A stretch of 64,000 nt of DNA from an uncultured Gemmatimonadales bacterium (lineage in GTDB: Bacteria; Gemmatimonadota; Gemmatimonadetes; Gemmatimonadales; GWC2-71-9). Shown here piece after piece: positions 16,158 through 56,074 of the stretch (position 1 is its first letter; each line of letters starts with the position of its first letter). The notes below the pieces were generated by a model. The model was given only the letters and a program-made list of their open reading frames with translations. It was not told where the DNA came from and did not search any database. The translations under genes and the position numbers were made by a program. The stretch is from assembly GCA_963836815.1 (NCBI GenBank), contig CAWILD010000014.1:31615-95614 (forward strand), written 5' to 3'.

Positions 16158-16192
16158 AGACTTAGCTGCAACCCCCTCTTTGACCTCGGCCG

Positions 16193-17527: not shown

Positions 17528-18016
17528 CTAGCGCACCACGACCCTCTTGTGCATGCCGAGCATCACATGAGGTGGCTGGCCCTCTCCATCGCGGAACTGG
17601 CACACGATCGCGTACGTTCGCCCGGGTAAGAGATCCACCATCAGCTCGCCGCCGCTGGCCTGGGCTGGACGCGCGATGAGCACACCAATCAATGCGTCGA
17701 GGAGCTCTTGGGGATCACCATCGGTGCGCAGTCGTTCCAGCAGCTGTTCAAAGCTGATGCCGGGCTTCAGCAGCGCCATGACCAATTCATGGGGCACTCG
17801 TCCTCGGTTCTGGAACGAGATTAGCGTGCGCCCACCCGAGAGTGTGTCGGAAGCCTGAAAGGCGTAGTCTGTTCCGGCAACCGTCACCGTGCTGACCCGT
17901 TGGCGGCAGCTGGGGCTGACAGTCACGAGGGCAACGAGCGCAGCGGTCCGCGCGAGGCGCTCGCGAGCACTTCGAGGGACTCGCAAACAACGCATCGTAC
18001 CTTCCTTCGCGAGCAC
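17528..18016 (-). CDS. secreted hypothetical protein, possibly cupredoxin-like
   Basis: Signal or lipoprotein leader ALVALVTVSPSC. The C-terminal GRTYAIVCQFRDGEGQPPHVMLGMHKRVVV resembles Cys/His/Met copper-site strands. The assignment is weak. Confidence 0.45.
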   Translation of the reverse strand: MLAKEGTMRCLRVPRSARERLARTAALVALVTVSPSCRQRVSTVTVAGTDYAFQASDTLSGGRTLISFQNRGRVPHELVMALLKPGISFEQLLERLRTDGDPQELLDALIGVLIARPAQASGGELMVDLLPGRTYAIVCQFRDGEGQPPHVMLGMHKRVVVR

Positions 18017-18061
18017 TGGCCGAAGCCAATAGCGCCGCAGCGGCCAAGGTAGGGGGTGGCC

Positions 18062-18115
18062 GCCTAACTAGAATTAGACTGCGACCGCAGCAGTCTAAAT
18101 CCGCTCGTGTCAGGG
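18062..18115 (+). repeat. possible short diverged attC-like site
   Basis: GCCTAAC-tagaa-TTAGACTGC-gaccgca-GCAGTCTAA-atccgctcgt-GTCAGGG. The 9-bp inner stem is perfect, but the outer boxes are complementary at only 5/7 positions. Confidence 0.3.
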
Positions 18116-18377
18116 GACCAGCCGGTTGCCCAACTTACTATAACGATTCGCGCGATGCGGACGTACGCCCTCGACCATAATCGGGGGCCGTCAGAATGAC
18201 GCTGTGGAACAAGGGATAGCGTGGGCTGGCTCTCCATGCAGGCGGCCTGCCCAGCGTCTGCTGTCGCACTTTCAACGGACCGCGACAATTCTGCATCTCA
18301 TGCCGCCCCGCGTGGCCCGGTGTATGCGGTTCCCGACTTGACCCGAGGAAATCCGTATCGAGCCGCGCGCTGGTCGC

Positions 18378-18503
18378 TTGACAGCCCCGGTACGGCACCG
18401 TACATCAGGGGTACTCCACGACAAAGGCACACCCGGCGAAAGCCGGGGCCGCAACGCGCCGAGATGCGCTCGTGCGAAGATCCCCCTCGCAGAGGAGGTT
18501 TCC
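18378..18503 (+). promoter_or_regulatory. promoter + conserved hairpin leader, copy A
   Basis: TTGACA-17 nt-TACATC, then cacgacaaaGGCACACCCGGCGAAAGCCGGGGCCGCAacgcgcc (CCCGGC/GCCGGG stem, GAAA loop), a CCCCTC..GAGGAGG stretch and GTG 18504. Repeated at 26644 and 28333. Confidence 0.5.
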
Positions 18504-18834
18504 GTGTCCACACGCCTGCCTGCCCTTCTGCTTCCGGTCATCCTCGCCTGCTCCCGGTCCACAGCCGAGAGCGCCTCTAGCGCCGCTCCTGTTAGCAGTG
18601 AGAACGATGAAGCGGCGCGCCGGGGCCGTTTCGCAGCTGGAGGATGAATGGGCAAACGCCCTCGAGGCGCACGACACGACGTTCTTGGCTCGGGTGGTTG
18701 CTCCCGACTTAACCACATCGAGTGTCACGCAGGGCCCCCTGCAGAACTCCACGTTCCACGCGCATCCCTGGAGAACGCTCTACTCGAGCGGGCCTCCGCG
18801 CCCGTCCGGCCTGTCGGCTGCATTTGCGGGTTAG
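18504..18834 (+). pseudogene. DUF4440/SnoaL-like lipoprotein, frameshifted and truncated by an attC half-site
   Basis: The lipoprotein signal VSTRLPALLLPVILAC is in one frame and ..QLEDEWANALEAHDTTFLARVVAPD.. in another, with at least two shifts. The 3' end runs into the inverted attC half-site at 18806-18838. Confidence 0.55.
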
Positions 18835-18838
18835 GCGG
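18806..18838 (-). repeat. solo attC left half (R''-L''), inverted orientation
   Basis: The reverse complement reads CCGCCTAACCCGCAAATGCAGCCGACAGGCCGG, the conserved attC left end. No matching right end was found. Confidence 0.6.
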
Positions 18839-18855
18839 CGTGCATGAATGTTCGA

Positions 18856-19056
18856 TTACATCTGCCTCTCGACCTGGCGCACGAGGCGAAAAGCCCAGAT
18901 GGCAAGCGCTGCCGGGAGGAGGAGGCCGATCACGGAGACCCAGAGCGGTACGACCCAATCGCCTAGTTCGGCCGGTACCCGGTACACAAGCCGAAGAAGG
19001 TGGCCGAGCGCGATGAGCCCGAACAAGGTGCCCGAGATTTGCAGATAGTACCTCAT
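18856..19056 (-). CDS. small membrane protein (2 TM), unknown function
   Basis: 66 aa with two hydrophobic helices (ISGTLFGLIALGHLL, VSVIGLLLPAALAIWAF). GGAAGGAAA lies 6 nt upstream of the ATG. Confidence 0.5.
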   Translation of the reverse strand: MRYYLQISGTLFGLIALGHLLRLVYRVPAELGDWVVPLWVSVIGLLLPAALAIWAFRLVRQVERQM

Positions 19057-19113
19057 TGGCTGTTTCCTTCCAGGGGCGGGCGAAGCCCCCTTTCTGACCG
19101 GGCTGGTGCTGCC

Positions 19114-19265
19114 GCCTAACGAAAATGCGCATCAGCCGCGGGGCCATCGTGCCGATGCCCGCACAAACCTACGCTCCATACGTCCCACAGCGCGCTCCAG
19201 GTGCGCTGCGACCGAGCGGAGGGCAGCGCTACCTCCGGCCCGTCGGCTGCATGCGCGGGTTGGGC
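19114..19265 (-). repeat. attC site, inverted orientation (152 bp)
   Basis: The minus strand reads GCCCAAC-ccgcgcatgcagccgacgggccgg ... gcggctgatgcgcattttc-GTTAGGC. It belongs to the long-class family found in the main array. Confidence 0.75.
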
Positions 19266-26643: not shown

Positions 26644-26824
26644 TTGCGTGATATAGCGCAACGCTATATACTGTACCTGCCAACCGAGAGAGCACACCCG
26701 GCGAAAGCCGGGGTCGCAAAGCCACGGATCCTCGCCTCCTCCGCGACGCCGGCCTTCGGCCAGCCACCACCGAGGTCCCAAGATCGCCGAGCTGCTGCTA
26801 TTGCAGGCTCGGCGTTTTCTTGTT
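26644..26824 (+). ncRNA. candidate small RNA: promoter + hairpin-leader module (copy B) ending in an intrinsic terminator
   Basis: TTGCGT-17 nt-TATACT; core GCACACCCGGCGAAAGCCGGGGTCGCA at 26692-26718; CCTCGCCTCCTCC stretch; stem GCCGAGC[tg]CTGC-TATT-GCAGGCTCGGC followed by GTTTTCTTGTT (26786-26824). No start codon follows at the position seen in copies A and C. Confidence 0.35.
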
Positions 26825-35308: not shown

Positions 35309-35354
35309 GCCTAACCCGCGCATGCAGCCGGCAAGCGCCGCCACAGGCGGTAGG
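35309..35354 (+). repeat. truncated attC (left end only)
   Basis: GCCTAACCCGCGCATGCAGCCGGCAAGCGCC then divergence. The only R'-like box is GGTAGGA. Confidence 0.5.
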
Positions 35355-35362
35355 AAGGCGAC

Positions 35363-35851
35363 GTGAGTCGCGGTACGGTCTCTCGTCGCGTGCGCATTGT
35401 GCTGCTGGCATTGCTTAGTGCCGGGTACTTCCTGGCGCTCTACGTGTTCTTCCGACCGGTCCAAGTGCGCATCTGGAATTACTTCAGCGCCGTCGATGTC
35501 TTCATGATGGCGTGCCTGATTCTCCCCTTCATGGTAGTGCCTCTGCTCGTCCCCCCACGTCACCGTGTGACCCGATATGCTTGGGCCGTCAGCGCCGTGA
35601 TGGCGCTGGATCTCGTGTTTTTCGCGGTGGCCGAGTTTGGACCGCTGGGGACCGGCCATCCGTCATTGGAATCGATGGGCTCGTACTTCCTGGCGATGGC
35701 CAAGCCGGTACTCGTCCCCGTGGCACTGGCCCTGCTGAGTGTCGCGTGTGTCAAAGGCGAACATATAGCCCTCGTCGCGACTGGGTTTCTCTGTTTGGCC
35801 GGGGAGACGCTATACGGGACGTACCCGACGGCGTGGTGGGGAACCGCCTGA
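35363..35851 (+). CDS. integral membrane protein, unknown function
   Basis: 162 aa with 4-5 hydrophobic helices. Bounded by attC sequences on both sides. Confidence 0.5.
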   Translation: MSRGTVSRRVRIVLLALLSAGYFLALYVFFRPVQVRIWNYFSAVDVFMMACLILPFMVVPLLVPPRHRVTRYAWAVSAVMALDLVFFAVAEFGPLGTGHPSLESMGSYFLAMAKPVLVPVALALLSVACVKGEHIALVATGFLCLAGETLYGTYPTAWWGTA

Positions 35852-35922
35852 ATGAAGCCGGAGCGATGTTGCACGCTGGCCCAGGGCCAAGGGGGGCGCT
35901 CTCGCGCCCTGCGTGACGTGCT

Positions 35923-36028
35923 GCCTAACCCGCGCATGCAGCCGACGAGCGCTGGCGCTAGACTCCGTTCGGGTGGCACCCTCCTGCGCGAGCTTGATTG
36001 CCCGCGCCTGATGCGCAATTCGTTAGGC
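35923..36028 (+). repeat. attC site (106 bp)
   Basis: GCCTAAC-ccgcgcatgcagccgac ... cgcgcctgatgcgcaattc-GTTAGGC. Confidence 0.8.
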
Positions 36029-42622: not shown

Positions 42623-43474
42623 ATGCCGACAGTGAAAGCCAACGGGCTCACAATAAACTTCGATGAGCAAGGAAGCGGCGAGCCTCTCCTTCTCATCCCC
42701 TATCTGGCCGCCGATCACGCATGCTATGCCTTTCAGGTGGCCGAATATGCCAAGCATTTCACCTGTATCTCGCTCGACCTGAGAGGCGCCGGCGAAACCG
42801 ACAAACCTGAAGGCTCGTACTCCACCGAGCTGTTCGCGGACGACGTCGCCGCCTTCATGCAGGCCCTGGGAATCCAGAAGGCCCACGTCTCCGGCCTGTC
42901 GCTCGGGGCAGCCACCGGGATGTGGCTGGCAGCCAAGTATCCCGGGCGAGTGAAATCGTTGTCGCTCCACGCAGCCTGGATCAAGACCGACTACTTCCTG
43001 CAGACGGTGGTCGGAACGTGGCAGGTCCTGGCCAAGGCGCTCGGCAGTGTGCACGAGACCATCATCCAGGGGATCTTTCCCTGGTGCTTGACGCCCGAAC
43101 TGTACGCCGCCAGGCCGGAATTCATCGGGTCCTTGATGGACTTCGTGCGGTCTCGCCCCGCGCAGCCGCTGGCCGCCTTCATCCAGCAGTCGAATGCCGT
43201 ACTTGCCCACGACCTCGAGGCTCAGTTGGGACGGATCACCGCGCCGACCCAGATCACCTGCGGGCGGCGCGACTTGCTGTGCTCGACGCGATTCGCCGAG
43301 CCCATCCACCACAGCATTCCGGGGTCCGAAGTCGTGGTGTTCGAGGACTGCGCGCACGCGCCGATCTATGAGAAGGTGGAAGAGTTCAATCAGAAGACGT
43401 TGGAGTTCTTGAAGCGGCACGCCGGCCTGACCGCGCGCTTCCCCCGAGGCGTCCCCGGAGTCGCCACCACCTAG
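42623..43474 (+). CDS. alpha/beta hydrolase
   Basis: ..GEPLLLIP.., nucleophile elbow VSGLSLGA, C-terminal ..FEDCAHAPIYE (His). Confidence 0.8.
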   Translation: MPTVKANGLTINFDEQGSGEPLLLIPYLAADHACYAFQVAEYAKHFTCISLDLRGAGETDKPEGSYSTELFADDVAAFMQALGIQKAHVSGLSLGAATGMWLAAKYPGRVKSLSLHAAWIKTDYFLQTVVGTWQVLAKALGSVHETIIQGIFPWCLTPELYAARPEFIGSLMDFVRSRPAQPLAAFIQQSNAVLAHDLEAQLGRITAPTQITCGRRDLLCSTRFAEPIHHSIPGSEVVVFEDCAHAPIYEKVEEFNQKTLEFLKRHAGLTARFPRGVPGVATT

Positions 43475-43546
43475 CGCGGACCGCCCTCCGGCCCTACCGT
43501 CGTGTCTGGTGCCCGCGGCAATCCCCGATCCCAGGTCTTCGACCGC

Positions 43547-45208
43547 ATGGCCAAGCCCGTCCTGTTGACCGTCGATGACGATCCCGAAGTGCTGAACGCC
43601 ATCGAGCGCGACCTCCGGCAGCATTTCCGAGGCGACTACCGGGTGGTGAAGGCGTCGTCCGGCGCCCAGGCGCTCGAGACCGTCCACCAGCTCCTCCAGC
43701 GCGGCGCCCAGGTCGCGCTCTTCCTCGTGGACGAGCGCATGCCGCACATGAGCGGCACCCAGTTCCTGCTCGAGGCGATCAAGGTCTACCCCGACGCGCG
43801 GCGCGTGCTGCTCACCGCCTACGCCGATACCGAGACCGCCATCACCGCCATCAACGAGGTCGGCCTCGACCATTACCTCCTCAAGCCATGGGAGCCGCCG
43901 ACGGTGCGGCTCTATCCGATCCTCGAGGACCTCCTCTCCGACTGGTTCGCCCGCGCCCGCCCGATGTTCGACGGGATCCGCGTGGCCGGCACGGCGCTCT
44001 CACCGGCGAGTTTCGCGGTGAAGGACTTCCTCGCGTCGAACCAGGTGCCGTACCAGTGGGTCGACTTGGAGAACGACCCGACCGGGCGTCAGCTCCTGTC
44101 GGACCCGAGCGACGGCGACGTGCGGCTCCCGAAGGTGCTCTTCCCCGACGGGACCACGATGGTGCAGCCTACCCTGCGCCAGCTGGCCGAGAAGATCGGG
44201 CTGCAGACCCAGGCGCAGAAGCCGTTCTACGATCTGATCGTCGTCGGCGGTGGTCCGGCAGGTCTCGCGGGTGCGGTGTATGGCGCGTCGGAAGGGCTGC
44301 GCACGATCCTCGTCGAAAAGAGCGCTCCGGGGGGTCAGGCCGGGACCAGCTCGAAGATCGAGAACTACCTCGGCTTCCCGAACGGCGTCACTGGCGCCGA
44401 CCTCGCGCGACGCGCTAAGGACCAGGCCAAGCGCTTCGGCGCCGAGATCATCACCACGCAGGAGGCGGTCGAGATCAGGCGCGAGGATCCGTACCGGAAG
44501 GTCATCCTGTCCGATGGGGCGGAGCTGACCGGCTACGCCCTCCTGATCGCGCCGGGGATGGAGGTGCGGCAGCTCCAAGCCGAGGGTATCGAGCCGCTGC
44601 TCGGGTCGGGCGTGTACTACGGCTCATCGCTCACGGAGGCCGCGACCTACCGCGGCAAGGATGTGATCGTCGTCGGCGGCGCGAACTCGGCAGGCCAGGG
44701 AGCGATATTCTTCTCGAAGACCGCCCGCAAGGTCACGATTCTCGTGCGCGGACCCGACATCCAGGCCGGGATGTCCCGCTACCTCGTGGACAGGATTCGA
44801 GAGACGCCGAACGTCGAGGTGCTGGTGAACACCTGCGTGGTCGCCGCGCGCGGCGAGGGGCGGCTCGAGGCCGTGACGGTGGTCGACCGGGTGAGCGGCG
44901 AGCACCGGGAGCTGTCCGCCGCCGCCATGTTCATCTTCATCGGGACCGCGCCGCGAACGGGACTGTGCAAGGAGCTCGTGATGCGCGACTCGCACGGCTT
45001 CGTGCTCACCGGCCGCGACGTGATGACCGACGGACACCGCCCAGCCGGCTGGACCGCCGAGCGCGACCCTTACCTCTTCGAGACGAACGTGCCGGGAATC
45101 TTCTGCGCCGGCGACGCCCGCCACGGCTCCGGCAAGCGCGTCGCGGCCGCCGTCGGCGAGGGATCGGCGACCGTGAGCATGATCCACCAGTACCTGCAGA
45201 CGGTGTAG
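43547..45208 (+). CDS. fused response-regulator receiver / thioredoxin-reductase-like FAD oxidoreductase
   Basis: REC: VLLTVDDDPEVL..LFLVDERMPHMSG..LLTAYAD..YLLKPW. FAD/NAD: YDLIVVGGGPAGLAGA, GGQAGTSSKIENYLGFP, VVGGANSAGQGA, FCAGDARHGS. GTG 43502 is an alternative start. Confidence 0.85.
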   Translation: MAKPVLLTVDDDPEVLNAIERDLRQHFRGDYRVVKASSGAQALETVHQLLQRGAQVALFLVDERMPHMSGTQFLLEAIKVYPDARRVLLTAYADTETAITAINEVGLDHYLLKPWEPPTVRLYPILEDLLSDWFARARPMFDGIRVAGTALSPASFAVKDFLASNQVPYQWVDLENDPTGRQLLSDPSDGDVRLPKVLFPDGTTMVQPTLRQLAEKIGLQTQAQKPFYDLIVVGGGPAGLAGAVYGASEGLRTILVEKSAPGGQAGTSSKIENYLGFPNGVTGADLARRAKDQAKRFGAEIITTQEAVEIRREDPYRKVILSDGAELTGYALLIAPGMEVRQLQAEGIEPLLGSGVYYGSSLTEAATYRGKDVIVVGGANSAGQGAIFFSKTARKVTILVRGPDIQAGMSRYLVDRIRETPNVEVLVNTCVVAARGEGRLEAVTVVDRVSGEHRELSAAAMFIFIGTAPRTGLCKELVMRDSHGFVLTGRDVMTDGHRPAGWTAERDPYLFETNVPGIFCAGDARHGSGKRVAAAVGEGSATVSMIHQYLQTV

Positions 45209-45213
45209 GGACG

Positions 45214-46639
45214 ATGACCGAGCCGCGACCAGCATCGGTGACTGCGGGAGACGGGTCCGACCTGCTCGCGCGCTTGGCCGCGCACCGGGTGATCGGCAAG
45301 GTGCCGCCCCGCGAGCTGGAGTGGCTGGCGGCGCACGGTACGCTCGAGCGCTACGAGCCGGGGCACATGATCGCGCGAAAAGGCGAGGTGGTGGAGGCGC
45401 TGTACATCCTTCTCAAGGGTCATGTCTCGCACGTGATCGATCAGGGGGGCGCGTGGCGCAAGTCCATGGACTGGCACGACGGTGACGTGACCGGGCTTCC
45501 TCCCATACTCGCGGCTCGTCGCCCCACCGGGCAACTCCGTGGTCCAGGAGCCGACCGAGCTGCTGCGAGTCGCCCGGGAGCACGTGCCGGTGCTTCCGAT
45601 CGAGTGTCCGCACGTGACCGCCGAGCTGGTGCACGCGATGGTGGACCGCGCGCGGGCATTCAAGGCCAGCGACCTGCAGGTGGAGAAGATGGCGTCGCTC
45701 GGCAAGCTGGCGGCCGGCCTGGCTCACGAACTGAACAACCCGGCGTCTGCCGCCGCGCGCAGCGCCCACCTCATTTCCGAGGCGCTGGCCGAGTCCGAGG
45801 AGGCGTCACGCGCGCTCGGCGCGGCGGGTCTCGACGCGCGGGCGCTCGCGGCGGTCGAGCGCGTCCGTTACGTCTGTGCCACCAGGGTGACTACGGGTGT
45901 GTTCTCGCCGCTCGACCGCGCGGATCGGGACGAGGCTTTGAGCGACTGGCTGCTGGATCACGGCGCGGATGATGCACTTGCCGCTCCGCTCGCCGAGACG
46001 AACGTCACGCTCGCACTGCTCGACGAGCTCGCGGCGGAGGTCGATGGCGACCAGCTTCGCGCGTCGCTCCGCTGGGTGGCGGCCGGGTGCACGGTCGGCG
46101 GGCTGGCGCGCGACATCGAGCGGGCGGCGTCGCGGGTGCACGAGCTGGTCAGCGCCGTGAAAGGCTTCACGTACATGGACCGCGCGCCGTCGCCCGAGCC
46201 GGTGGACGTCGGGAAGGGACTTTCGGATACCCTTGCCGTGATGACCGCGAAGGCGCGCGCGAGGTCGGCGTCCTTGACGGTGGACGTGCCGGCGGAGCTC
46301 CCGCGCGCGCGCGGTTTCGGGGGCGAGCTGAATCAGGTATGGGCGAACCTGATCGACAACGCGCTCGACGCAGTGAGCGACGGCGGGCGGGTGACCGTGA
46401 CGGCGCGCGCCGAGGGACCGAAGGTCGTGGTGCGGGTGACCGACGACGGGGCGGGGATCCCGGCTGAGGTGAAGAGCCGGATCTTCGATCCCTTCTTCAC
46501 CACGAAGCCCGTGGGCAAGGGCACCGGGCTCGGTCTCGACATCGTCCGGCGCCTGGTGGATCACAACGACGGCTCCATCGAGGTGCAGTCCGAGCCCGGA
46601 CGGACGGAATTCCGCGTGGCGCTCCCCGTGTCCGAGTGA
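45214..46639 (+). CDS. cyclic-nucleotide-binding-domain sensor histidine kinase; one frame break
   Basis: The cNMP-binding-like N-terminal part (..YEPGHMIARKGEVVEALYILLKGHV..) is joined, after an extra G at 45493-45495, to ..GFLPYSRLVAPPGNSVV... H-box LAAGLAHELNNP. N/G boxes NLIDNALDA, DDGAGIP, GKGTGLGL. Confidence 0.85.
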
Positions 46640-46651
46640 GTCGGTAGTCCC

Positions 46652-47119
46652 ATGCGAAGTCACGTAACCTTCAAAACACCGCGCTTCAATCAGACCGAGG
46701 TGCGGCAGCACTTCATCAACGATTGCTGCTTCGGCGAGGACTGCATCGCCTGGCTCATTGGCGAGCTGCGCGGCCGAGGGTGGACCGACCTCACCGAGGC
46801 CTGGCAGGAGGACTGGGGTTGGCAGACCAGCGGGCAGCGCGACGGCCGCCGGTACCTCCTCAGCGTTGGACTGATCCCCGAGGATGAACCGGAATGGCTC
46901 GTCCACATCGGGGAGAAGGCGCCGCTACTGGATCGCCTCCGCGGCCGGGGTGAGCTCAAGGTCCTGCCAAAGTTGGCTCCGGCGCTGCATGAGGTGCTGC
47001 GGTCCGCGTCAGACGTCGGGGACGTGAGCTGGCATTTCGAAGATGAATTCATGCGAGGGACGAGCACCGGTGGGGCTGATCCGGCCGCGCCCCGAACCGG
47101 CGGCGGGGTCACCACCTAG
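46652..47119 (+). CDS. hypothetical protein
   Basis: 155 aa with coding-like composition (..FINDCCFGEDCIAWLIGELRGRGW..). No family recognised. Confidence 0.45.
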   Translation: MRSHVTFKTPRFNQTEVRQHFINDCCFGEDCIAWLIGELRGRGWTDLTEAWQEDWGWQTSGQRDGRRYLLSVGLIPEDEPEWLVHIGEKAPLLDRLRGRGELKVLPKLAPALHEVLRSASDVGDVSWHFEDEFMRGTSTGGADPAAPRTGGGVTT

Positions 47120-47134
47120 CTTTCGCGAGGCCCG

Positions 47135-47551
47135 ATGCTCCTTCCTATCCTTGGGGGCGCTGCGCTCGGAGCACTGTTCGCAGTGCTCGCAGCCAACCGT
47201 GGGGCGGCCGGCGAGCGGCGCTTGCTCGCGCTCGGCCTGGTCGTGGCCGCCCTCATCTACGTGGGTCTCGCACTGCCCAGCGCCGACTCGCACTGGCTGG
47301 CGGTCGAGGCGATCGGCGTCATCATGTTCGGAGGGCTGGCCTGGGTCGGCAGCCGCGCGGCGGGATGGTTGGCACTGGGCTGGGCCGCACACGTGGCATG
47401 GGACGTCGGGCTTCACCTCGACCGCGCTCAACCTGTCGTCGGGGGCTGGTACCCGTTGGCCTGCGTCGGGTTCGACCTGGTGATTGCCGGTTTCGTTCTG
47501 CACGCTGCCGTGCAGGCAGTGCGATCGCGCGCCGGCGCGCCGGTGAAGTGA
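47135..47551 (+). CDS. integral membrane protein, unknown function
   Basis: 138 aa with four hydrophobic helices. Confidence 0.5.
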   Translation: MLLPILGGAALGALFAVLAANRGAAGERRLLALGLVVAALIYVGLALPSADSHWLAVEAIGVIMFGGLAWVGSRAAGWLALGWAAHVAWDVGLHLDRAQPVVGGWYPLACVGFDLVIAGFVLHAAVQAVRSRAGAPVK

Positions 47552-47579
47552 TCGCTCGCAGCTCACCTGAGGATCACCG

Positions 47580-48320
47580 ATGGACGGCAAGACGACGCTC
47601 CTGATTCTCGTCCTCGTGGTGGGTGAGCAGCTCGGCCGCCGGTTCATCCATCCGTATTTCGGAGTCGTCTACGTCCCGCTGGTCCTGGCCGCACAGCTCG
47701 TCTATTCCCGTGTGGCTGATCGCGGACGGCGGCAGCGGCTCGCCGCGATCGCGGAGATGCCGGAGGACCAGCGACGAGCCGCCGCGGACGCCCTCCCTGA
47801 TGAGGACGAGCGCGTCCGCGCGAGGCTCGCGCTCGGCCTGGTGGATCCGGTGGCCGACGGGCCACAGGGCGCGGAGGAGGAGGTGTTCGGCTACCCCCGG
47901 AGCTGGCGCCGCTCGGTCGTGTGGACCTACTGGATGTGTCTCGCCATGGCGGGCTTCATTCTGGCCATCGGATACAGCCAGAACGTGGTCGCCAGGCCCG
48001 ATTTCCTGCCGTGGCTCGGACTGATCCTGGGGTTCGGTGGAGGTGCCGTCGCCGTCCGATGGTCCGAGCGCCACGTGCTCACCCGCGTCTTCATCAACGT
48101 GAGCGGGATCGGGTCCATCGATCCCTCGGGACAGCGGCAGATCATCCTCTGGAGCGAGCTCATCGGCCTCCGGCCGCGGCCGTGGCTTTCGCAGGTCGAC
48201 TTCCATGGACGGGGGAGCACGGGCAGGATCGTGGCCTCCTACCACCTGGAGCGGTTTCCCCGGCTGATGGAGCTAGTCTCGGCACGACTCCAAACCATGA
48301 ACCCGGAGGATGCTGCCTGA
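47580..48320 (+). CDS. membrane protein, unknown function
   Basis: 246 aa with N-terminal and central TM pairs and a soluble C-terminal domain. Confidence 0.5.
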   Translation: MDGKTTLLILVLVVGEQLGRRFIHPYFGVVYVPLVLAAQLVYSRVADRGRRQRLAAIAEMPEDQRRAAADALPDEDERVRARLALGLVDPVADGPQGAEEEVFGYPRSWRRSVVWTYWMCLAMAGFILAIGYSQNVVARPDFLPWLGLILGFGGGAVAVRWSERHVLTRVFINVSGIGSIDPSGQRQIILWSELIGLRPRPWLSQVDFHGRGSTGRIVASYHLERFPRLMELVSARLQTMNPEDAA

Positions 48321-48331
48321 CGGAAGCTTCA

Positions 48332-48718
48332 ATGCCCTGGTGGGCACTTGGCTACGTCATCCTCTACGCCGGCATCGGCGTCGCGGCCGCGATCGATGAG
48401 TACCGCAGTGGCAACGGCCTCGGTTGGGCTGTGGGAGAGCTGCTCGCCACCGTCCTCGGGTCGCTCTTCGTGTGGGCGCTCTGGCACCGGAGTCTTCAGT
48501 CGGGCTTGGGGAAGGCCGTGCTTCCGCTCTTCGTGGGTGTGCTCGTGTGGGAGATCGTTTCGGCAGCGCACGACCTATCCGCCGAGCAGCCCAACGGGGA
48601 GCTGTCGCCGGCTGCCGATCGGGCAGCTCACCGCCTCGGCGTACTGCTCGCCCTTCTTCTCGTTGCCCCGGCTCTCGCGGCGGGTGCGTGGCTCTGTTGG
48701 CGCGCACTCAACGCATGA
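48332..48718 (+). CDS. integral membrane protein, unknown function
   Basis: ATG 48332, 128 aa, four hydrophobic helices. Confidence 0.5.
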   Translation: MPWWALGYVILYAGIGVAAAIDEYRSGNGLGWAVGELLATVLGSLFVWALWHRSLQSGLGKAVLPLFVGVLVWEIVSAAHDLSAEQPNGELSPAADRAAHRLGVLLALLLVAPALAAGAWLCWRALNA

Positions 48719-48836
48719 AGGGAGTCGCCATGCTTCACAGCCAGCTGATGCTCTTCGGGCTTCGGTGCCCTGAGCCTGATCGGCTGTGAGCGGCGGCTAC
48801 CCGGAAACATCACCGCGTGCCAGGTGTACCGGCGCA

Positions 48837-48976
48837 GTCTAACCCGCGCATGCAGCCGACAGACCGGATAAGCGCAGAGTTCCGCTCGGGCGGCACCCTC
48901 TGCGAGTGCTCTAAGGAACGAAGGTTTGTGCGGGCGGTAGCATGAGGGCCTGCAGCTGATGCGCAAGGCGCTAGGC
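48837..48976 (+). repeat. attC site (140 bp)
   Basis: GTCTAAC-ccgcgcatgcagccgac ... ggcctgcagctgatgcgcaaggc-GCTAGGC. Confidence 0.8.
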
Positions 48977-49008
48977 GGGCTCGCTATTGAGTTCTGGGAG
49001 GTGCCAAC

Positions 49009-49416
49009 ATGACCAGTCGGGATCAAACCCCCGTTGCCGAGGATCGGGACGCGGAGCTCCTCCGCTCGACCGAGCGCGAGCGACTCCGTGCGCTGGTCAC
49101 TGGTGATGTTGATCGGGCACGTCAGCTGCACTCCGAGGACTTTCAACTCATTAACCCTCTGGGCGGAGCGCTTTCGAAAGAGCAGTACCTGGGCGGCATC
49201 AGCGCCGGACAGATCCATTACCTGTACTGGGCGCCTGAATCGATCGCGGTTCGCCTCTACGGAGATGTGGCGGTGATCCGGTATCGGTCAGAGCTCGAAA
49301 TCGTTGTGCAGGGCCGCCACATTCCGCGTCAGCGGTATTGGCATACCGATCTATACGAGCGGCACGGGATGCAGTGGCAGGTCGTGTGGTCGCATGCGAC
49401 TGCCGCCGACTACTGA
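49009..49416 (+). CDS. DUF4440/SnoaL-like protein (cassette)
   Basis: GGGAGGTG precedes the ATG. ..ERLRALVTGDVDRARQLHSEDFQLINPLGGALSKEQYL..VAVIRY..YWHTDLYERHGMQWQVVWSHAT. Confidence 0.7.
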   Translation: MTSRDQTPVAEDRDAELLRSTERERLRALVTGDVDRARQLHSEDFQLINPLGGALSKEQYLGGISAGQIHYLYWAPESIAVRLYGDVAVIRYRSELEIVVQGRHIPRQRYWHTDLYERHGMQWQVVWSHATAADY

Positions 49417-49441
49417 TGGCGAACATCACGCCCAGCTCGCC

Positions 49442-49585
49442 GCCTAACCCGCGCATGCAGCCGGCAGGCCGGGGTGGGCCCAGAACTCCGCTCGGGCGCG
49501 GGGCTCCTGGAGGCGAGTCAGCGGAAGCGTAGGTTTGTGCGGGCGGTAGGATGATCGCCTGCAGCTGATGGCAAAGTCGTTAGAC
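49442..49585 (+). repeat. attC site (144 bp)
   Basis: GCCTAAC-ccgcgcatgcagccggc ... cgcctgcagctgatggcaaagtc-GTTAGAC. Confidence 0.8.
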
Positions 49586-49599
49586 GGACGCGGAAAGGC

Positions 49600-50076
49600 T
49601 CAGGCCGAGGCGGCGCGCCGATCGATCCGAGCTATGAAGCAGCCGGCCTCGGCGTTCCGCAAATGCGCATACTGAGCGGCTGGGAGCTCGAAGACCACAT
49701 CGAGGACGTCTTCGAAGCGGGCGGTGCCGACCCGCCGCTGAGCCAGGAGGGTCCCGGCCGCACCGTAGCCTTCGATCACGAGGGGTAGGGGTCTCAGCGC
49801 CTCGGGGAGTCCCCCGTCATCGTACCGCTCACAGGGGACGCGATGGATGAACACCGGCCCCGGTGCGGGCAAGGCTCCGGGATCCGTGAAAGGTTGGTAG
49901 GTGAAGAGCAGGCGCTCATCAGTCCCGACGGTGAAGGTTTGCAGGCATAGTCGGCACGGGCCGTATCCCGTTGCTACCTCGACATGGGCGGGATGGCCGT
50001 ACTGCGGCGAGCGGAGGGCGGCTCGCGCCGCCGTCGCCAGGCTGTCGGGAATGCCTTGAATCCGGTAGCGGTGCAT
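49600..50076 (-). CDS. DUF1203 domain protein (reverse-oriented in its cassette)
   Basis: MHRYRIQGIP..GYGPCRLCLQTF..ERLLFTYQPF..GPVFIH match the DUF1203 pattern as I recall it. Confidence 0.65.
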   Translation of the reverse strand: MHRYRIQGIPDSLATAARAALRSPQYGHPAHVEVATGYGPCRLCLQTFTVGTDERLLFTYQPFTDPGALPAPGPVFIHRVPCERYDDGGLPEALRPLPLVIEGYGAAGTLLAQRRVGTARFEDVLDVVFELPAAQYAHLRNAEAGCFIARIDRRAASA

Positions 50077-50149
50077 GCGGGAGCCCGGGAAGAGGTGCGA
50101 CGAAGCTAGATGCTTCGGCACGGGCGTGCCTCCCAAGTCATGCGCTCAA

Positions 50150-50270
50150 ATCGCGCGGCGCGCCACCGGTGCCGCGGGCGCGGGCGCCCGTGCGACTCCC
50201 GGTCGTCCTGACGCCGGAGGAGGTGCGCCGGGTGCTGGAGCAGATGTGGGGCACTACGCGGCTAGCGTTT
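50150..50270 (+). pseudogene. integron-integrase-like (IntI) fragment, ~40 codons
   Basis: ..[34 protein letters not shown] parallels the IntI1 segment ..[28 protein letters not shown] (from memory). No catalytic region follows, and it is cut off by the attC at 50310. Confidence 0.55.
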
Positions 50271-50309
50271 CAAGCGAGCGCTTCGCTTGGGTCAAAGGTC
50301 CCAGGTGCC

Positions 50310-50447
50310 GCCTAACCAGCGCATGCAGCCGGCAAGCGCTTCCAGGCAAGTCTCCGGTGCCCGCCACCCGCCGATGGCGGGCGGCGGAACGTAGGGTTGC
50401 TGCATGAGCGGGCGAGTCGCTTGCGGCTGATGCGCATTTCGTTAGGC
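50310..50447 (+). repeat. attC site (138 bp)
   Basis: GCCTAAC-cagcgcatgcagccggc ... cgcttgcggctgatgcgcatttc-GTTAGGC. Confidence 0.8.
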
Positions 50448-50495
50448 AGCCTTGAGATTCATTGATGCGAATCGGGTGATCAAGGAGGTGAAACA

Positions 50496-51206
50496 ATGTC
50501 GTACGTGGCAGTCGTCTTCGTCGTCGGGTTGCTCATCGCGATTCACGAGTATGGCCACCTGTTGGCGGCGAAACTGTGCGGGATCCCCGTCAAGCGATTC
50601 TCCATTGGCTTCGGGCCTAAGGTCCTCGAGGTCAAACACGGAGAAACATCGTATTGGCTCTCCTGGATTCCGATAGGCGGTTACGTCCTGCCGGCAATCG
50701 AGCAGGACGACTTCCGCGAACTTCCGGCGTATAAGCGAATCACATTTGCCCTTGGCGGTCCGATGGCCAACGTGATCGCGGCGTTCATGGGTTTATTCCT
50801 CCTCGGGCTCGCCCAGTTCAACTTGCCAGTATTCGGGGCCACATCGTTTGCCGCTACCCAACTGTGGACGGGACTGCAACAACAGATCTCTGGGCTTTCG
50901 GCGCTGGTTACTGATGTCGAGCAACTCACCGGGATCGTCGGAATCGTTGCTGTTGGAGGTGCCCAGTTCGGATCCACGCTCACCAGCTTGCTGACGTTCT
51001 CGGTGCTGATAAACCTCAGCCTGGCTGTCATGAACCTGTTGCCGCTACCTCCGCTCGACGGTGGGCGAATTCTCTTCTGCGTTCTCGAGAAGATCTACCG
51101 GCCTGTGGTCAGGGCCGAAGCTCCCTTGACCTTAGCCGGCTGGACGATGGTCTTGGCGTTGATGGTCTATCTGACGGTTCAGGATGTCGGCAGGATCTTG
51201 GCCTAG
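50496..51206 (+). CDS. M50 (site-2 protease) family membrane metalloprotease without PDZ domain (cassette)
   Basis: AAGGAGG precedes the ATG. HEYGH (HExxH) sits in the first TM region and NLLPLPPLDGG in a later TM region. 236 aa. Confidence 0.8.
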   Translation: MSYVAVVFVVGLLIAIHEYGHLLAAKLCGIPVKRFSIGFGPKVLEVKHGETSYWLSWIPIGGYVLPAIEQDDFRELPAYKRITFALGGPMANVIAAFMGLFLLGLAQFNLPVFGATSFAATQLWTGLQQQISGLSALVTDVEQLTGIVGIVAVGGAQFGSTLTSLLTFSVLINLSLAVMNLLPLPPLDGGRILFCVLEKIYRPVVRAEAPLTLAGWTMVLALMVYLTVQDVGRILA

Positions 51207-51255
51207 AGAGTATTCCAGCAGAAAACTGGATGGCGTCGTATCGGACCTGAGCGCT

Positions 51256-51341
51256 GCCTAACAGGCGCTTGCAGCCGACGGCGCGGGTATCATCGTGTGA
51301 AAGATCTGGGAGCGCGCCGCGGCTGAAGCGCGACGTTAGGC
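51256..51341 (+). repeat. attC site (86 bp)
   Basis: GCCTAAC-aggcgcttgcagccgac ... gcggctgaagcgcgac-GTTAGGC. Confidence 0.8.
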
Positions 51342-51354
51342 CTGCGAGAGACCA

Positions 51355-51783
51355 ATGATGACCACTAAGACCTATCTAGAGCCGACACAAGAGTCGGGCC
51401 GCGCATTCTTCACTCGCGGTATTTCCGGCAGCGTCGTAATGCTCAACTTGCTGCGGTTTCGTCCCGTTGCGGACTACTCAGCCACACCCGACCTCGCTCC
51501 GGCTTCGCCCATATCCGGAGAGACCGCCTACCGCCTATATATGGAGCACACTCTTCCGTACCTGAAGCAGTCCGGGGGTGAAGTGCTCTTTTTCGGCAAG
51601 GGCGGCGAGTTCCTGATTGGCCCGAGCGATGAGCGCTGGGACGCCGCCATGCTTGTGCGCCAAACCAACGTAGCTTCGTTCCTAGAGTTCGCCTCAAACC
51701 AAGAGTACCTCTCCGGCCTCGGGCATCGCCTCGCCGCGTTAGAGGATTCACGCTTGCTCCCGCTTATCGGGGAACAGGCCTAA
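51355..51783 (+). CDS. DUF1330 domain protein (cassette)
   Basis: ..VVMLNLLRFRPVADY..YRLYMEHTLPYLKQSGGEVLFFG.. The stop TAA lies inside the next attC R'' box. Confidence 0.65.
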   Translation: MMTTKTYLEPTQESGRAFFTRGISGSVVMLNLLRFRPVADYSATPDLAPASPISGETAYRLYMEHTLPYLKQSGGEVLFFGKGGEFLIGPSDERWDAAMLVRQTNVASFLEFASNQEYLSGLGHRLAALEDSRLLPLIGEQA

Positions 51784-51837
51784 CAAATCCATGCAGCCGA
51801 CGTGCGAAGCCGCACGCGGCTGATGGTGTCGTTAGGC
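51778..51837 (+). repeat. attC site, minimal 60-bp form
   Basis: GCCTAAC-aaatcc-ATGCAGCCG-acgtgcg-aagc-cgcacg-CGGCTGAT-ggtgtc-GTTAGGC. All boxes pair, with one unpaired G in the left inner box. Confidence 0.85.
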
Positions 51838-51851
51838 CGCGATCGGAAACT

Positions 51852-52247
51852 ATGGACTATGCCATCAAGCTCGTAGTTCTATCGGCGGCGACACTCGCTG
51901 CTCTCGCCGTCGGCGTCTCCGTGCTCGCGATGTATCGTCTTGTTGAGCCGCGGCGCCTCGCCATCATCTCGCTGGTATCGGCAGCCATCGCCGCGACGGT
52001 GTATCCTTGGCACGGGCTTCGGGCAGAATCCCTTCCTGCGTCGTTTCTTGTGTTCCTTTTCCTCGCCGTAACAGCTGCAGCTTCTGGTATCGCATGCCTG
52101 GCGTTGACCCGTCGGAGCGAGCACCCAGGGCTTGGGGGCCTAGAGATCGTCGTTGTGGTGGCCGTAATCGCCGCGTTGGTGCCGATGGTTCAGTTCTGGT
52201 TCGCAGGGGGCTTCGTTGCGCTTGCCCTCATCTTCGGCATGCACTAA
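51852..52247 (+). CDS. integral membrane protein, unknown function (cassette)
   Basis: 131 aa with four hydrophobic helices. Confidence 0.5.
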   Translation: MDYAIKLVVLSAATLAALAVGVSVLAMYRLVEPRRLAIISLVSAAIAATVYPWHGLRAESLPASFLVFLFLAVTAAASGIACLALTRRSEHPGLGGLEIVVVVAVIAALVPMVQFWFAGGFVALALIFGMH

Positions 52248-52273
52248 CGGTGCTGGCTATCGTCGGAACCGCA

Positions 52274-52369
52274 GCCTAACCAAGCGTTGGAGCGGTCCGC
52301 CGGAGTGCGGCGTTCGAAGGTAGTCCGCGGCATTCCGTCCGCCGGCCGCTCAACGCTCGGTCGTTAGGC
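52274..52369 (+). repeat. attC site (96 bp)
   Basis: GCCTAAC-caagcgttggagcggtccgccgg ... ccggccgctcaacgctcggtc-GTTAGGC. Confidence 0.8.
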
Positions 52370-52497
52370 GGTCGACATATGTCTTGGTCCAGGACCTCGC
52401 CGCCTGTACTTCTCTACAGCGTGCCACGCGTCGGGCATTTCTTGCGCGTTTCCCGCGATTGAGCTGGAGTCGGGGGGCAACGACCACTGGAGGCCGT

Positions 52498-52953
52498 ATG
52501 AAGGGACCTCGATATCCGGTCGGGCTTCTCCTCGTTTTGGTGGCGGCGGCATGTGGCGGCGCGCGCTCCGCGCGTACACCCACCCCGAGCCCAGGTGCTG
52601 CGCCTTTCATCGCGATCAAGGTCGACACCATGGCGTGGGGAGAGGCGAACATGCATCCGACGCTGCAGTGGTTCCGCAAGCGCCTGGTGAACGATACGAG
52701 TGCGCAGGGCATCTACGTCTCCCTGCTCCGCTATCCGGCGGGAGTGATTAACCCAAGTCACAGGCATCCGCATCCGCATGGGTTCTACGTTCTGCAGGGG
52801 CAACTAGTGACGAGTCGTGGCACCTTTGGGCCGGGAACGTTCGTCTGGTTCCCAGCTGGCGAAGTCATCGAACACGGCGCCGGCATCAAGGAGGACATGG
52901 TGGCGATCTTCATCAGCGGCGCGCCGTTCCAGATCGATTACGTGAACAGGTGA
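52498..52953 (+). CDS. cupin-domain lipoprotein (cassette)
   Basis: GGAGG precedes ATG 52498. Lipobox LVLVAAAC. ..INPSHRHPHPHGFYVLQGQLV..FVWFPAGEVIEHG. Confidence 0.7.
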   Translation: MKGPRYPVGLLLVLVAAACGGARSARTPTPSPGAAPFIAIKVDTMAWGEANMHPTLQWFRKRLVNDTSAQGIYVSLLRYPAGVINPSHRHPHPHGFYVLQGQLVTSRGTFGPGTFVWFPAGEVIEHGAGIKEDMVAIFISGAPFQIDYVNR

Positions 52954-53003
52954 GCCAGAGCACTGGGCGCTCCTACACAAGGCGGCGATTGGCCAAAGTC
53001 GCC

Positions 53004-53834: not shown

Positions 53835-54211
53835 GGCGCAGTCACCGCTCGTGGCAAGTACCAACGGTCGAATGATTCATCCTCGCGTTCGGCAGTAACC
53901 TTCTCTGCTCCGCGAAGCGACATCCGAAGCAGCCTCTCAACGACCGCGCCAAGCTCTGGGTACCTTCCCCGGTCTCGCATCATCCAGGCTCTGCTCAGCT
54001 CTCGTCCATTGCGCCAGATCGTGAAGGTTCGAACGTCCTCATCGCTGTCCAACACGTATCGAGGCTGAGCTGCTGCTAGTTCATCTGCATGTGCATCTAC
54101 CCGCAACCAGAACGCAGCCAACTCTGCTTCTTCCGCCTTCCCCTGCACGTACGTTGTGACCAACCGAGACGGACACCGGAGAGGGACGATCGTTCCGTCG
54201 TCCCAAAGCAC
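53708..54211 (-). CDS. hypothetical protein; 3' end of ORF reads through the attC
   Basis: 167-codon ORF. The first ~120 codons look coding (..FTIWRNGRELSRAWMMRDRGRYPELGAVVERLL..). The last ~40 are antisense attC sequence. Confidence 0.4.
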   Translation of the reverse strand: MLWDDGTIVPLRCPSRLVTTYVQGKAEEAELAAFWLRVDAHADELAAAQPRYVLDSDEDVRTFTIWRNGRELSRAWMMRDRGRYPELGAVVERLLRMSLRGAEKVTAEREDESFDRWYLPRAVTAPPNEMQISCKRPEKNLRSLPPLGGLPITGVRARPRLSAAFAG

Positions 54212-54277
54212 GGCGAGCGGCTGGTATCGCGGTCCAGACCGGAGCCCGGGTGGCCCAGAGAGCGCCGGCGTGATGCC

Positions 54278-54901
54278 TTAGACGGTGCGGGGTCGCCACG
54301 GCTCGTGCTCGTGCGCGAGCCAGACCAGCTCGGGGTCGAGCGCGCGCACCCGCAGCTGGCCTTCGGTGTGCGGCTCGTCGAGCTCGCCAAACCAAACCGC
54401 CACGTCGCCGCCAACGACGACCGGGCGCCCGCCAGTCTCGACGACGACGACCTGCATGCCGCGTGTGTGGCCCGGCGCCGGGACGAGCCGGAGCCCGGGA
54501 AGCAGCTCGAGTTCGCCGTCGACCGGCACGTACCGCACGCCGGGCGCCTCGACCCACTCGCGAATGGTGTAGTCGTCCTCGTTGCGCGCGTCGTCGAGCT
54601 CCCGACGCTGGACGTAGATCGGCCTGCCGGCGAAGAGGTGGTTGCCGCCGCAGTGGTCGAAGTGCAGGTGTGTGTTGACGACGATGTCGATGCCGGCGAG
54701 GTCGAAGTTCTGATTGCTCAGTGGACGGAGGCGGGGATCGAGGTCGGCCACCGCCGGGTGCAGCTCCGTCATGCCGGTGTCGACCAGCACGCGCGCATCG
54801 GGATGGTCGATGACGTGCACGTAGACCGGCATCCGCTCGCCCTCGGCGAGCAGGTCGGCAACGCGGACTGGCGTGATGGTGATTGAGGCGAGGGCGTTCA
54901 T
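54278..54901 (-). CDS. MBL-fold metallo-hydrolase (lactonase-like)
   Basis: THLHFDHCGG (HxHxDH), ..PAPGHTRG.., ..GDV... 207 aa. Confidence 0.8.
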   Translation of the reverse strand: MNALASITITPVRVADLLAEGERMPVYVHVIDHPDARVLVDTGMTELHPAVADLDPRLRPLSNQNFDLAGIDIVVNTHLHFDHCGGNHLFAGRPIYVQRRELDDARNEDDYTIREWVEAPGVRYVPVDGELELLPGLRLVPAPGHTRGMQVVVVETGGRPVVVGGDVAVWFGELDEPHTEGQLRVRALDPELVWLAHEHEPWRPRTV

Positions 54902-55416
54902 TGAGGACCGACCGCCGTGGTGGTGGCTGATTTCATCGCGATCACGTGCTCCACGAACTGATCGACGGCGATCTCGGTGCCCTGGTAGAAGCCCGACGCT
55001 TTGTTGTTCTCGAGGTCCGCTTCATCCCGGTGCAGCGCCGTGAAGACGTAGCGAGTGCCGGTTCCCACGGTTTCCATCGTAATGATGGCGGTAATCGGAA
55101 TGTCGTCAAAGACAGCCGGACGATAGCCGGGGAACAACATGGAGGTCCAGACAAGTCGCTCCATCGGAAGCACTTCCAGGAAACAGCCGAGGTTGGGAAC
55201 CTCCTGACCGTCTGCCATTGCGATGTCGATGCTGAAGATGCCGCCCGGTCGCACGTCCATTTCGGTTCGCGACACACGCCCCCAAGGCTTGGGCATGTAC
55301 CACTCCTTCAGATGCTCCGGTTTGGTCAACGCTTCCCAGACGAGCCGCGTGGGAGCGTCGATGAACCGTTCGATAGCGAAATCAAGTTTCGGATTGAGCG
55401 TGAATTGCTTGCTCAT
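54898..55416 (-). CDS. SRPBCC (AHSA1/START-like) domain protein
   Basis: ATG 55416 overlaps the arsR-like stop. ..IERFIDAPTRLVWEALTKPEHLKEWY..GGIFSI... ArsR-SRPBCC is a common gene pair. Confidence 0.7.
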   Translation of the reverse strand: MSKQFTLNPKLDFAIERFIDAPTRLVWEALTKPEHLKEWYMPKPWGRVSRTEMDVRPGGIFSIDIAMADGQEVPNLGCFLEVLPMERLVWTSMLFPGYRPAVFDDIPITAIITMETVGTGTRYVFTALHRDEADLENNKASGFYQGTEIAVDQFVEHVIAMKSATTTAVGPQ

Positions 55417-55766
55417 GATTCTGATTCCTTGTCCTTGAGTTGTTTGACGTATTGGTCGAACCGGTCCAGTCGAGCTTCCCACAACTGACGACGCGCGGTC
55501 AGCCAGTCTTCAACGACCTTGAACCGTTCGGGTGCGATCTCATACGTCCGCACTCGGCCGCGCTTTTGCGACCGCACCAGTCGGCTCTGTTCGAGCACCG
55601 AGAGGTGCTGCACGAACGACGGGAGTTGCATGTCGAACGGTGCCGCCAGTTCGCTGACGGTGGCTGGTCCGACAGACAGTCGCTCCAGGACTTTCCGCCG
55701 CGTCGGGTTGGACAAGGCGTGAAACACGTCGTCAGCGGCTGCGGAGTGAACCATTTGCGACACCAT
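55413..55766 (-). CDS. ArsR/SmtB family transcriptional regulator
   Basis: ..VFHALSNPTRRKVLERLSVGPATVSELAAPFDMQLPSFVQHLSVLEQSRLVRSQKRGRVRTYEI is a winged HTH of the ArsR type. Confidence 0.85.
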   Translation of the reverse strand: MVSQMVHSAAADDVFHALSNPTRRKVLERLSVGPATVSELAAPFDMQLPSFVQHLSVLEQSRLVRSQKRGRVRTYEIAPERFKVVEDWLTARRQLWEARLDRFDQYVKQLKDKESES

Positions 55767-55975
55767 CCAAATGCTCGGGTTATCCGATCTGACCGAGAGA
55801 TTCTACAGCCATGGAATACTTCTGTCAATACCTAAGTATTTGCCATGATGGAAGCGCGGCCCCCCACGCAGAGACAAGAGCTCCGGCGAAGCCGGTTTCC
55901 CTTCATCGACTGGACTGCGACCTTTGCTGGCCGGGATGCAGTCAGGGCCGCGCATGGCGAGCGCTTCGCTCTGCG

Positions 55976-56074
55976 GCCTAACGAACGTTGCAGCTGACAA
56001 GCGATCTGATGATTGCGCCACGCTGCGCGCGGCGCTTCTATTGACTCGCTTGCAGCTGAACTTGGGCGTTAGGC
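55976..56074 (+). repeat. attC site (99 bp)
   Basis: GCCTAAC-gaacgttgcagctgac ... cgcttgcagctgaacttgggc-GTTAGGC. Confidence 0.8.

Follow-up and report, generated by a model that had tools for sequence, protein, structure and literature searches.

We find that a 101-bp piece of an integron integrase gene (intI) lies in a gene cassette from an uncultured Gemmatimonadales bacterium, where it is almost certainly an inert, intI-derived scar. The cassette carries a reverse-oriented DUF1203 gene and belongs to an attC array in the window, by which we mean the whole 64,000-nucleotide stretch of DNA that was analysed. Comparison with sister cassettes indicates that the native attC of this cassette, ~75 bp in length, has been exchanged for the intI piece, a 43-bp tail and a different attC of 138 bp. 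The best explanation, which we hold with somewhat better than even confidence, is a scar of illegitimate recombination, most likely from one complex templated event, in which the fragment is inert. The features of the cassette, by window position, are:

49442..49585 (+): upstream attC, 144 bp, whose R' (GTTAGAC) is where the DUF1203 cassette begins, at ~49581
49600..50076 (-, reverse relative to the array): DUF1203 gene, 158 aa (Pfam PF06718, E=2e-23)
50077..50165 (-): conserved DUF1203 leader (5' non-coding), delimited by alignments with L010, L011-13, L014 and L019
50166..50266 (+): intI-derived piece, 101 bp, equivalent to codons ~93-126 (34 codons) of the lineage integron integrase
50168..50175 (+): 8-bp direct repeat GGTGCCGC, left copy, inside the intI piece (read from the sequence)
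50267..50309 (+): 43-bp tail between the intI piece and the attC (GTTTCAAGCGAGCGCTTCGCTTGGGTCAAAGGTCCCAGGTGCC), containing the short hairpin motif GCGAGCGCTTCGCT (50274-50287)
50304..50311 (+): GGTGCCGC repeat, right copy, across the junction of tail and attC
50310..50447 (+): downstream attC, 138 bp, with pairing of R'' GCCTAAC and R' GTTAGGC; 3' boundary of the cassette

The fragment derives from an integron integrase gene

The original prediction described an integron-integrase-like fragment and proposed alignment to IntI profiles as the check, with an equally good match to generic XerC/D or phage integrases as the contrary outcome. Both the identity and the check hold up. When the 57-aa stretch was compared with 18,950 NCBIfam models (E<=10), two of them matched and both describe integron integrases: TIGR02249 (E=4.2e-5, profile positions 89-123 of 315) and NF011946 (E=1.1e-4, profile positions 105-141 of 337). 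No XerC, XerD or XerA model of NCBIfam matched even at E<=10, and IntI is thus the nearest family of the fragment, ahead of XerC/XerD and phage integrases. A Pfam search of the stretch returned nothing. With an intact IntI from a related locus (L009) as the query, tblastn aligned IntI residues 90-126 with window positions 50157-50267 (34/37 identities, E=5e-15) and detected no other intI segment in the window.

At the nucleotide level, blastn matched the piece to nine intI loci with 91-99% identity (E 1e-34 to 4e-46). The best of these is the intI of the MAG CAVRRH010000015 (L002), with 98-99% identity, the other eight being 91-97% identical. The end points of the homology are identical for all nine (50165/6-50266/7); outside them the nine loci still co-align on both sides, and the window diverges completely. 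A search of 5.8 billion proteins returned one match (P0001), the N-terminal part of a frameshifted integrase from an ENA soil contig, and a DNA search with a codon-level pattern for PVVLTPEEV[RG]RVLEQM led to two Gemmatimonadales MAGs (CAVRRH010000015 and DASWIX010000033) and six JGI metagenome contigs. The alignments indicate a match that is specific to IntI and far beyond chance.

The + strand frame that had been put at about 40 codons is real: it lies in an ORF at 49971..50315 (+), whose TAA stop (50313-50315) falls within the GCCTAAC core of the next attC. The homologous stretch itself is shorter, however, with 34 codons (101 bp), or 37 at the protein level. Nor is it cut off by the attC, as had been thought, since the homology already ends at 50266, which leaves 43 bp of unrelated sequence (50267-50309) in front of the R'' core at 50310.

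The piece covers the linker that joins the N-terminal domain to the catalytic domain, together with the first helix of the latter. It corresponds to residues ~92-125 of VchIntIA (..RKLPVVLTRDEIRRLLE..) and to residues 112-147 of an IntI1 sequence, with 47% identity. It has neither a start codon nor catalytic residues, and tblastn with the L009 IntI detected neither the IntI-specific extra domain (..ALARKYPRAGRSLQWQWVFP..) nor the catalytic domain; apart from the piece, the one place in the window that this IntI matched is an Xer-like gene at 16.2-17.4 kb, with a gap across the extra domain. Its score on TIGR02249, 23 bits against a cutoff of 265, is not that of a whole IntI protein. An intact frame under purifying selection is likewise lacking, with no start codon in the window, a frameshift in one close relative (L017) and a 6-bp deletion in another (L018). 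Judged by its sequence, the fragment is derived from an IntI gene and is not itself an intI gene, as all gene-level features fail.

In the parent integrons, intI is co-oriented with the cassettes

All nine matching loci (L001-L009) contain a whole or nearly whole intI, and in L004, L005 and L009 the gene is intact and encodes 331 aa. The IntI of L009 reaches 442 bits on TIGR02249, against a cutoff of 265, and its alignment with VchIntIA (PDB 2A3V) is end to end (residues 6-319, E=4e-87). With full-length relatives of this kind and homology specific to intI, the earlier description of the fragment as a relic of intI is borne out.

In L001, L002, L004-L007, L009 and L020-25, intI, an attI of ~70 bp and the cassettes are all on one strand, in the order intI -> attI -> cassettes. 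The lineage attI is conserved and ends ..CAGGTCCAATACAAG|TTAG (..CAAG|TTAG), after which the loci differ in their first cassettes; the attCs of these relatives are of the same family as those of the window. No attCs were found upstream of intI in the intI loci examined. The upstream flanks of intI vary between genomes among the closest loci, and in one sub-lineage the integron follows mreBCD-PBP2-rodA-accD-folC-hisS-cupin-proS.

Members of this IntI family are numerous in soil metagenomes and most of them are intact; more than 100 have 90% identity or above, many of them named 'integron integrase'. The source contig was not among the members listed for the IntI protein clusters (15 per cluster). 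A literature search for integron integrases and gene cassettes in Gemmatimonadetes returned just an unrelated paper.

Six of the nine closest intI copies are frameshifted, internally deleted or rearranged: L001 (intI at 9870-10930), L002, L003, L006, L007 and L008. Two of these, L003 and L007, share the same disrupted reading, and part of the disruptions may be long-read sequencing error.

The fragment is a component of a gene cassette

As first reported, a reverse-oriented DUF1203 gene shares the inter-attC interval with the fragment, between the attCs at 49442-49585 and 50310-50447. Among the 1891 DUF1203 homologues that a search returned at E<1e-20, most of the close ones have 154-158 aa, with 158 aa the commonest length, and the extent of the gene was set at 49600-50076 on this basis. 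In other contigs the DUF1203 gene is typically the only one on its strand among small genes of the opposite strand, i.e. it is a reverse-oriented cassette there as well.

The bottom strand of the attC at 50310-50447 is predicted to form the hairpin of a gene-cassette boundary: it is long and imperfect, its R'/R'' core ends pair, and a few stem bases are unpaired (dG -50.2 kcal/mol, z=-4.9). In searches, this attC matched only generic attC ends. Colinearity of the window with L017 persists to ..CGTTAG (about 50445), beyond which their cassettes differ. As their homology extends to the GTTAG of R' and ends there, the attC is a genuine cassette boundary and the scar is cassette-borne. On the left, the upstream neighbour is the same in all three assemblies that contain the cassette. 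The attC-bounded DUF1203 cassette spans about 49581-50441, with the piece in its non-coding end, and the piece is a component of the cassette.

The tail (50267-50309) matched nothing in any intI locus or elsewhere, save for 14 nt at 55957-55970. These 14 nt are the hairpin-forming GCGAGCGCTTCGCT, which is identical at 50274-50287 and 55957-55970 (blastn-short E=0.015). Both copies stand just upstream of an attC in cassettes with reverse-oriented genes (DUF1203 in one, ArsR/AHSA1/metallo-beta-lactamase-fold in the other), and the shared motif may be due to chance or may be a common tail element.

Sister cassettes reveal an attC replacement

In the window, the leader, ending ..GGCGCGCC, is followed by the intI piece ((A)CCGGTGCC...GGCTAGC), the 43-bp tail and the attC. 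Homology of the leader to scar-free sister cassettes stops at 50154-50165. The closest of these, L010 and L019, are 92-93% identical to the window over 49556-50154/50162; they share the DUF1203 gene and ~85 bp of leader, and contain no intI piece. Their leader runs directly into an attC of ~75 bp (GTYTACTCCTCGTGYCCAGAC...GCGTRGGCC), which is unrelated to the 138-bp attC at 50310. In L011-13, ..GGCGCGCC also runs directly into an attC R'' core. Because L010 and L019 lack the piece and have another attC after the same leader, the native attC was replaced by the piece, the tail and a foreign attC. This agrees with the proposal of the original prediction that the fragment marks a rearrangement.

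The left junction of the patch reads GGCGCGCC|ACCGGTGCC (GGCGCGCC|ACCGGTG) and the right junction of the intI piece reads GCTAGC|GTTTCAA; a GTTRRRY core is present at neither. The two copies of GGTGCCGC bracket 136 bp. Their significance is weak and suggestive only (p~0.03 in a shuffle test), and the right copy is not at the intI/tail junction. Based on this repeat, we considered a plain 136-bp insertion before the cassette's own attC, and dropped it because the native attC in L010 and L019 is a different site of ~75 bp.

The DUF4440 cassette that adjoins DUF1203 in L019 is not the same as that of the window, so the adjacency of DUF4440 and DUF1203 is uninformative on ancestry. Another decayed boundary occurs in the same cassette family: at about 3866-4000 of L011, and also in L012 and L013, the attC of the DUF1203 cassette ends after its R''-L'' half (GTCTAACCCGCGCATGCA), and the next gene begins within ~30 bp of the cut attC.

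The scar is inherited and shows no sign of selection

Three assemblies share this cassette, junctions included: the source of the window, ERZ25039531 contig_154148 (L017; 77.6 kb, colinear with window positions 43455-50445) and ERZ14708982 (L018). The scar is therefore not an assembly artefact or chimera, and it is older than the split of these populations. The piece in L017 has a 1-nt deletion, which shifts the frame, and one substitution; that in L018 has a 6-bp deletion. The substitution density in the piece is the same as in its flanks, with differences equally frequent. Given the indels and this flank-like mutation density, the piece is not under selection as coding sequence, a pattern that indicates neutral drift of the scar.

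The array in the window lacks an integrase and attI

Three clusters of attC sites are present in the window, at 17464-19265 (-), at 35309-36028 (+) and from 48837 to the window end (+), the last with at least 15 sites. The attCs of this main cluster lie at 48837, 49442, 50310 and onwards to 63871, and the DUF1203 cassette is thus the third from its upstream edge, not in the middle of the array as had been stated. Upstream of the first attC are genes for a response regulator/oxidoreductase, a histidine kinase and small membrane proteins.

A search for attI-like sequence had been suggested, and the lineage attI is absent from the window. Targeted tblastn with the proteins encoded beside the intact intI of L020-L025 (mreC to proS, from L020) and with the genes upstream of the L001 intI detected none of them in the window. 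A tblastx comparison of synteny between the intI loci and the window gave high-GC noise only and was discarded. A complete integron, i.e. an intact intI and attI beside the attCs, is not found within the window, where the upstream end of the array was tested and the array continues past 64000. With no intI and no attI, the array within the window is a CALIN, which is defined as a cluster of attC sites without an integrase (Cury et al. 2016, PMC4889954). The suggestion that the fragment marks a former array start is therefore unproven, as the window holds no lineage attI, no other intI segment and no intI-neighbour genes; the location of the scar within a cassette that is bounded by attCs and shared whole among relatives also bears on it.

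The fragment had been considered the only integrase-related sequence near the cassettes, which is incorrect: a gene for a 405-aa non-IntI tyrosine recombinase at 16220-17437 (-) lies 27 bp from an attC (17464-17484). It follows a tRNA-Leu(taa) gene at 16073-16156 (+). The recombinase resembles Xer proteins, its alignment has a gap at the IntI-specific domain, and in none of its NCBIfam matches does the score come near the cutoff. The small inverted attC cluster beyond it has R'' cores at 17484, 18836 and 19265 (-). In its layout, the region 16073-19265 resembles a tRNA-linked island integrase next to a CALIN.

The cluster at 35309-36028 consists of two attC cores on the + strand, 12.8 kb upstream of the main array. 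For the first of them, at 35309, there is no R' partner in the next 160 bp, where apparent coding sequence follows, and this attC looks truncated.

Cassette content differs between very close relatives, as seen when window positions 50446-53000 are compared with L017 8199-9632. The M50-peptidase cassette of the window and the next cassettes to about 53000 are absent from L017, which instead has ~1.4 kb with a Transposase_20 (IS110-type) fragment and one cassette. That cassette (L017 8144-8482) matches window positions 18785-19117, in the inverted cluster, with 85.5% nucleotide identity, which indicates that cassettes have moved between clusters. A large reverse-oriented multi-gene cassette at 53835-56074 is 98.5% common with L017. 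It encodes an ArsR-family regulator (55413-55766, -), an AHSA1-domain protein (about 54898-55482, -) and a metallo-beta-lactamase-fold protein (54278-54901, -) that the sources name 'N-acyl homoserine lactone hydrolase'. Elsewhere in the window, 26681-26799 (+) is a c-di-GMP-I riboswitch aptamer (Rfam RF01051; 45 bits, gathering score 35).

Origin of the scar

In the mechanism that we propose, replication or repair would break, or a fork would stall, at the base of the native attC hairpin. Synthesis would then switch template to a putative resident intI elsewhere in the genome, from which ~100 nt would be copied, take a further ~40 nt from a second short template, and resume before another attC, with deletion of the interval between. 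The 8-bp sequence GGTGCCGC would have served as microhomology at both ends of the patch. We are fairly sure that the formation of the scar was not catalysed by IntI, and we regard a one-step templated patch, rather than decay in situ, as an about even to marginally favourable proposition. The patch is favoured because the remnant is so short, because no attI or other part of intI survives, because no intI locus examined has cassettes upstream of intI, and because the end repeat fits the use of microhomology.

Decay in situ is less likely. A complete, co-oriented intI-attI would once have stood directly after the DUF1203 cassette, at the head of the array whose start is now at 50310. One deletion would then have taken out codons 1-92 along with the native attC, and another would have taken out codons 127-331, attI and the proximal cassettes, thereby fusing two arrays. 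This route corresponds to the former array start or array fusion of the original prediction. The piece does have the same orientation relative to the attCs as intI has in every related integron, the native DUF1203 attC is lost and the attC at 50310 is foreign. The window contains other signs of array break-up, in its three attC clusters with one inverted, and many intI copies of the lineage are visibly decaying. The upstream context of intI also varies between genomes, so that an intI copy could once have adjoined the DUF1203 cassette. However, neither attI nor any other intI segment remains, and two independent deletions would have had to end within 101 bp inside a 1-kb gene. An earlier event would also be needed to place cassettes upstream of intI, where no examined intI locus has attCs. 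The piece shows no excess divergence from living genes, and the GGTGCCGC repeat would have to be coincidental.

We consider it very unlikely that the integrase itself captured the fragment, by recombining an attC with secondary sites in its own gene and thus packaging a slice of intI into a cassette. Cassette integration at secondary sites has been reported and is cited as one origin of CALINs (Cury et al. 2016, PMC4889954), and a preprint reports efficient insertion outside att sites (bioRxiv 10.1101/2022.09.11.507474). Products of IntI at secondary sites have G|TT core junctions and an R' end that abuts the captured DNA, neither of which is seen here. The left junction, GGCGCGCC|ACCGGTGCC, has no GTT/AAC core, and the piece abuts the cassette leader and not the R' end of an attC. 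The tail does start with GTTTCAA and so contains GTT, but this is unlike the GTTRRRY core used throughout the array (GTTAGGC/GTTAGAC), and the base before TT is not derived from intI.

A functional element, either an antisense RNA or decoy (~99% complementary to intI mRNA) or a small ORF from GTG 50169 to TAA 50315, seems more improbable still. It could account for 101 nt that are near-identical to the lineage intI, that lie upstream of and antisense to a reverse-transcribed gene, and that have been kept in three assemblies. On the other hand, a scan of 49400-50500 detected no promoter-like or terminator-like site on either strand, the indels of L017 and L018 include a frameshift, and the mutation density equals that of the flanks. 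No GGAGG-like ribosome-binding site precedes the sole in-frame start, as read from the sequence. The conserved DUF1203 leader is located downstream of the patch on the - strand, and the DUF1203 promoter therefore probably does not transcribe the patch. Also very improbable is a patch that acts in trans as a cassette-borne switch, shutting the integron down and making CALINs. If this were true, a patch transcribed leftward would be an antisense RNA that silences intI, or else the co-oriented 101-bp homology would let RecA delete the catalytic half of the integrase, attI and the proximal cassettes. Finally, chance similarity, a generic Xer or phage-integrase fragment, or an assembly chimera might be suspected because the piece is short and many tyrosine recombinases share the LPxxLT..EV motif, but these origins, whose probability is close to nil, are refuted by the IntI-only profiles, the blastn matches to nine intI loci and the identical junctions in three independent assemblies.

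A second speculative reading, related to that of the cassette-borne switch, is that the scar records template switching at a stalled attC hairpin, which would make it a candidate for a route by which foreign DNA is joined to attC sites. If so, the route would bear on the unsolved question of cassette origin.

Significance and comparison with known systems

The scar is a further example of the integrase remnants known beside CALINs and is biologically ordinary, with two small twists: the remnant comes from a non-catalytic region and is too short for the published screen, and it is embedded in a cassette with a swapped attC. Its significance is modest and leaves the general understanding of integrons unchanged. 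The results confirm the 15-kb attC cluster as part of a Gemmatimonadales-lineage integron system, whose integrase (331 aa when intact, co-oriented with the array) is common in soil metagenomes. They show that integrase remnants can shrink to 34 non-catalytic codons, and they document an attC swap on a cassette, by what we take to be non-integrase recombination. The 101 bp of identity are long enough for homologous recombination with a resident intI.

Templated-insertion or microhomology template-switch scars (MMBIR/FoSTeS-type) form a class of events that the patch resembles, in that a ~100-nt gene copy and a short filler stand at a deletion junction with 8 bp of microhomology. The breakpoints are likewise at the base of a hairpin-forming repeat; in the window the mechanism is putative.

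Compared with VchIntIA/IntI4 (2A3V) and the class 1 integrase IntI1, the fragment in the window retains neither the N-terminal nor the catalytic domain, nor the insertion specific to IntI. A closer likeness is to the integrase pseudogenes that Cury et al. found near 15 of 279 CALINs, using a C-terminal IntI profile with >50% coverage (PMC4889954). In both cases a non-functional integrase remnant accompanies an attC cluster with no intact intI nearby, which fits arrays that were parted from their integrase by loss or rearrangement (PMC4889954). Unlike those pseudogenes, the remnant in the window is only 34 codons long, comes from the inter-domain region and is enclosed in an attC-bounded cassette, not placed alongside the array. 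Being so short and inter-domain, it would be missed by the C-terminal-profile screen (PMC4889954), and some calls of a CALIN without an intI pseudogene may therefore hide scars of this kind.

Cury et al. also discuss an 'inverted integron-integrase group', in which the integrase is co-oriented with the cassettes, with Treponema as an example (PMC4889954). The window differs in holding only a 101-bp piece of such a gene, and the parent integrons differ in coming from Gemmatimonadales. They share with this group the co-orientation of integrase and cassettes, and the piece in the window has kept the same orientation relative to its attCs.
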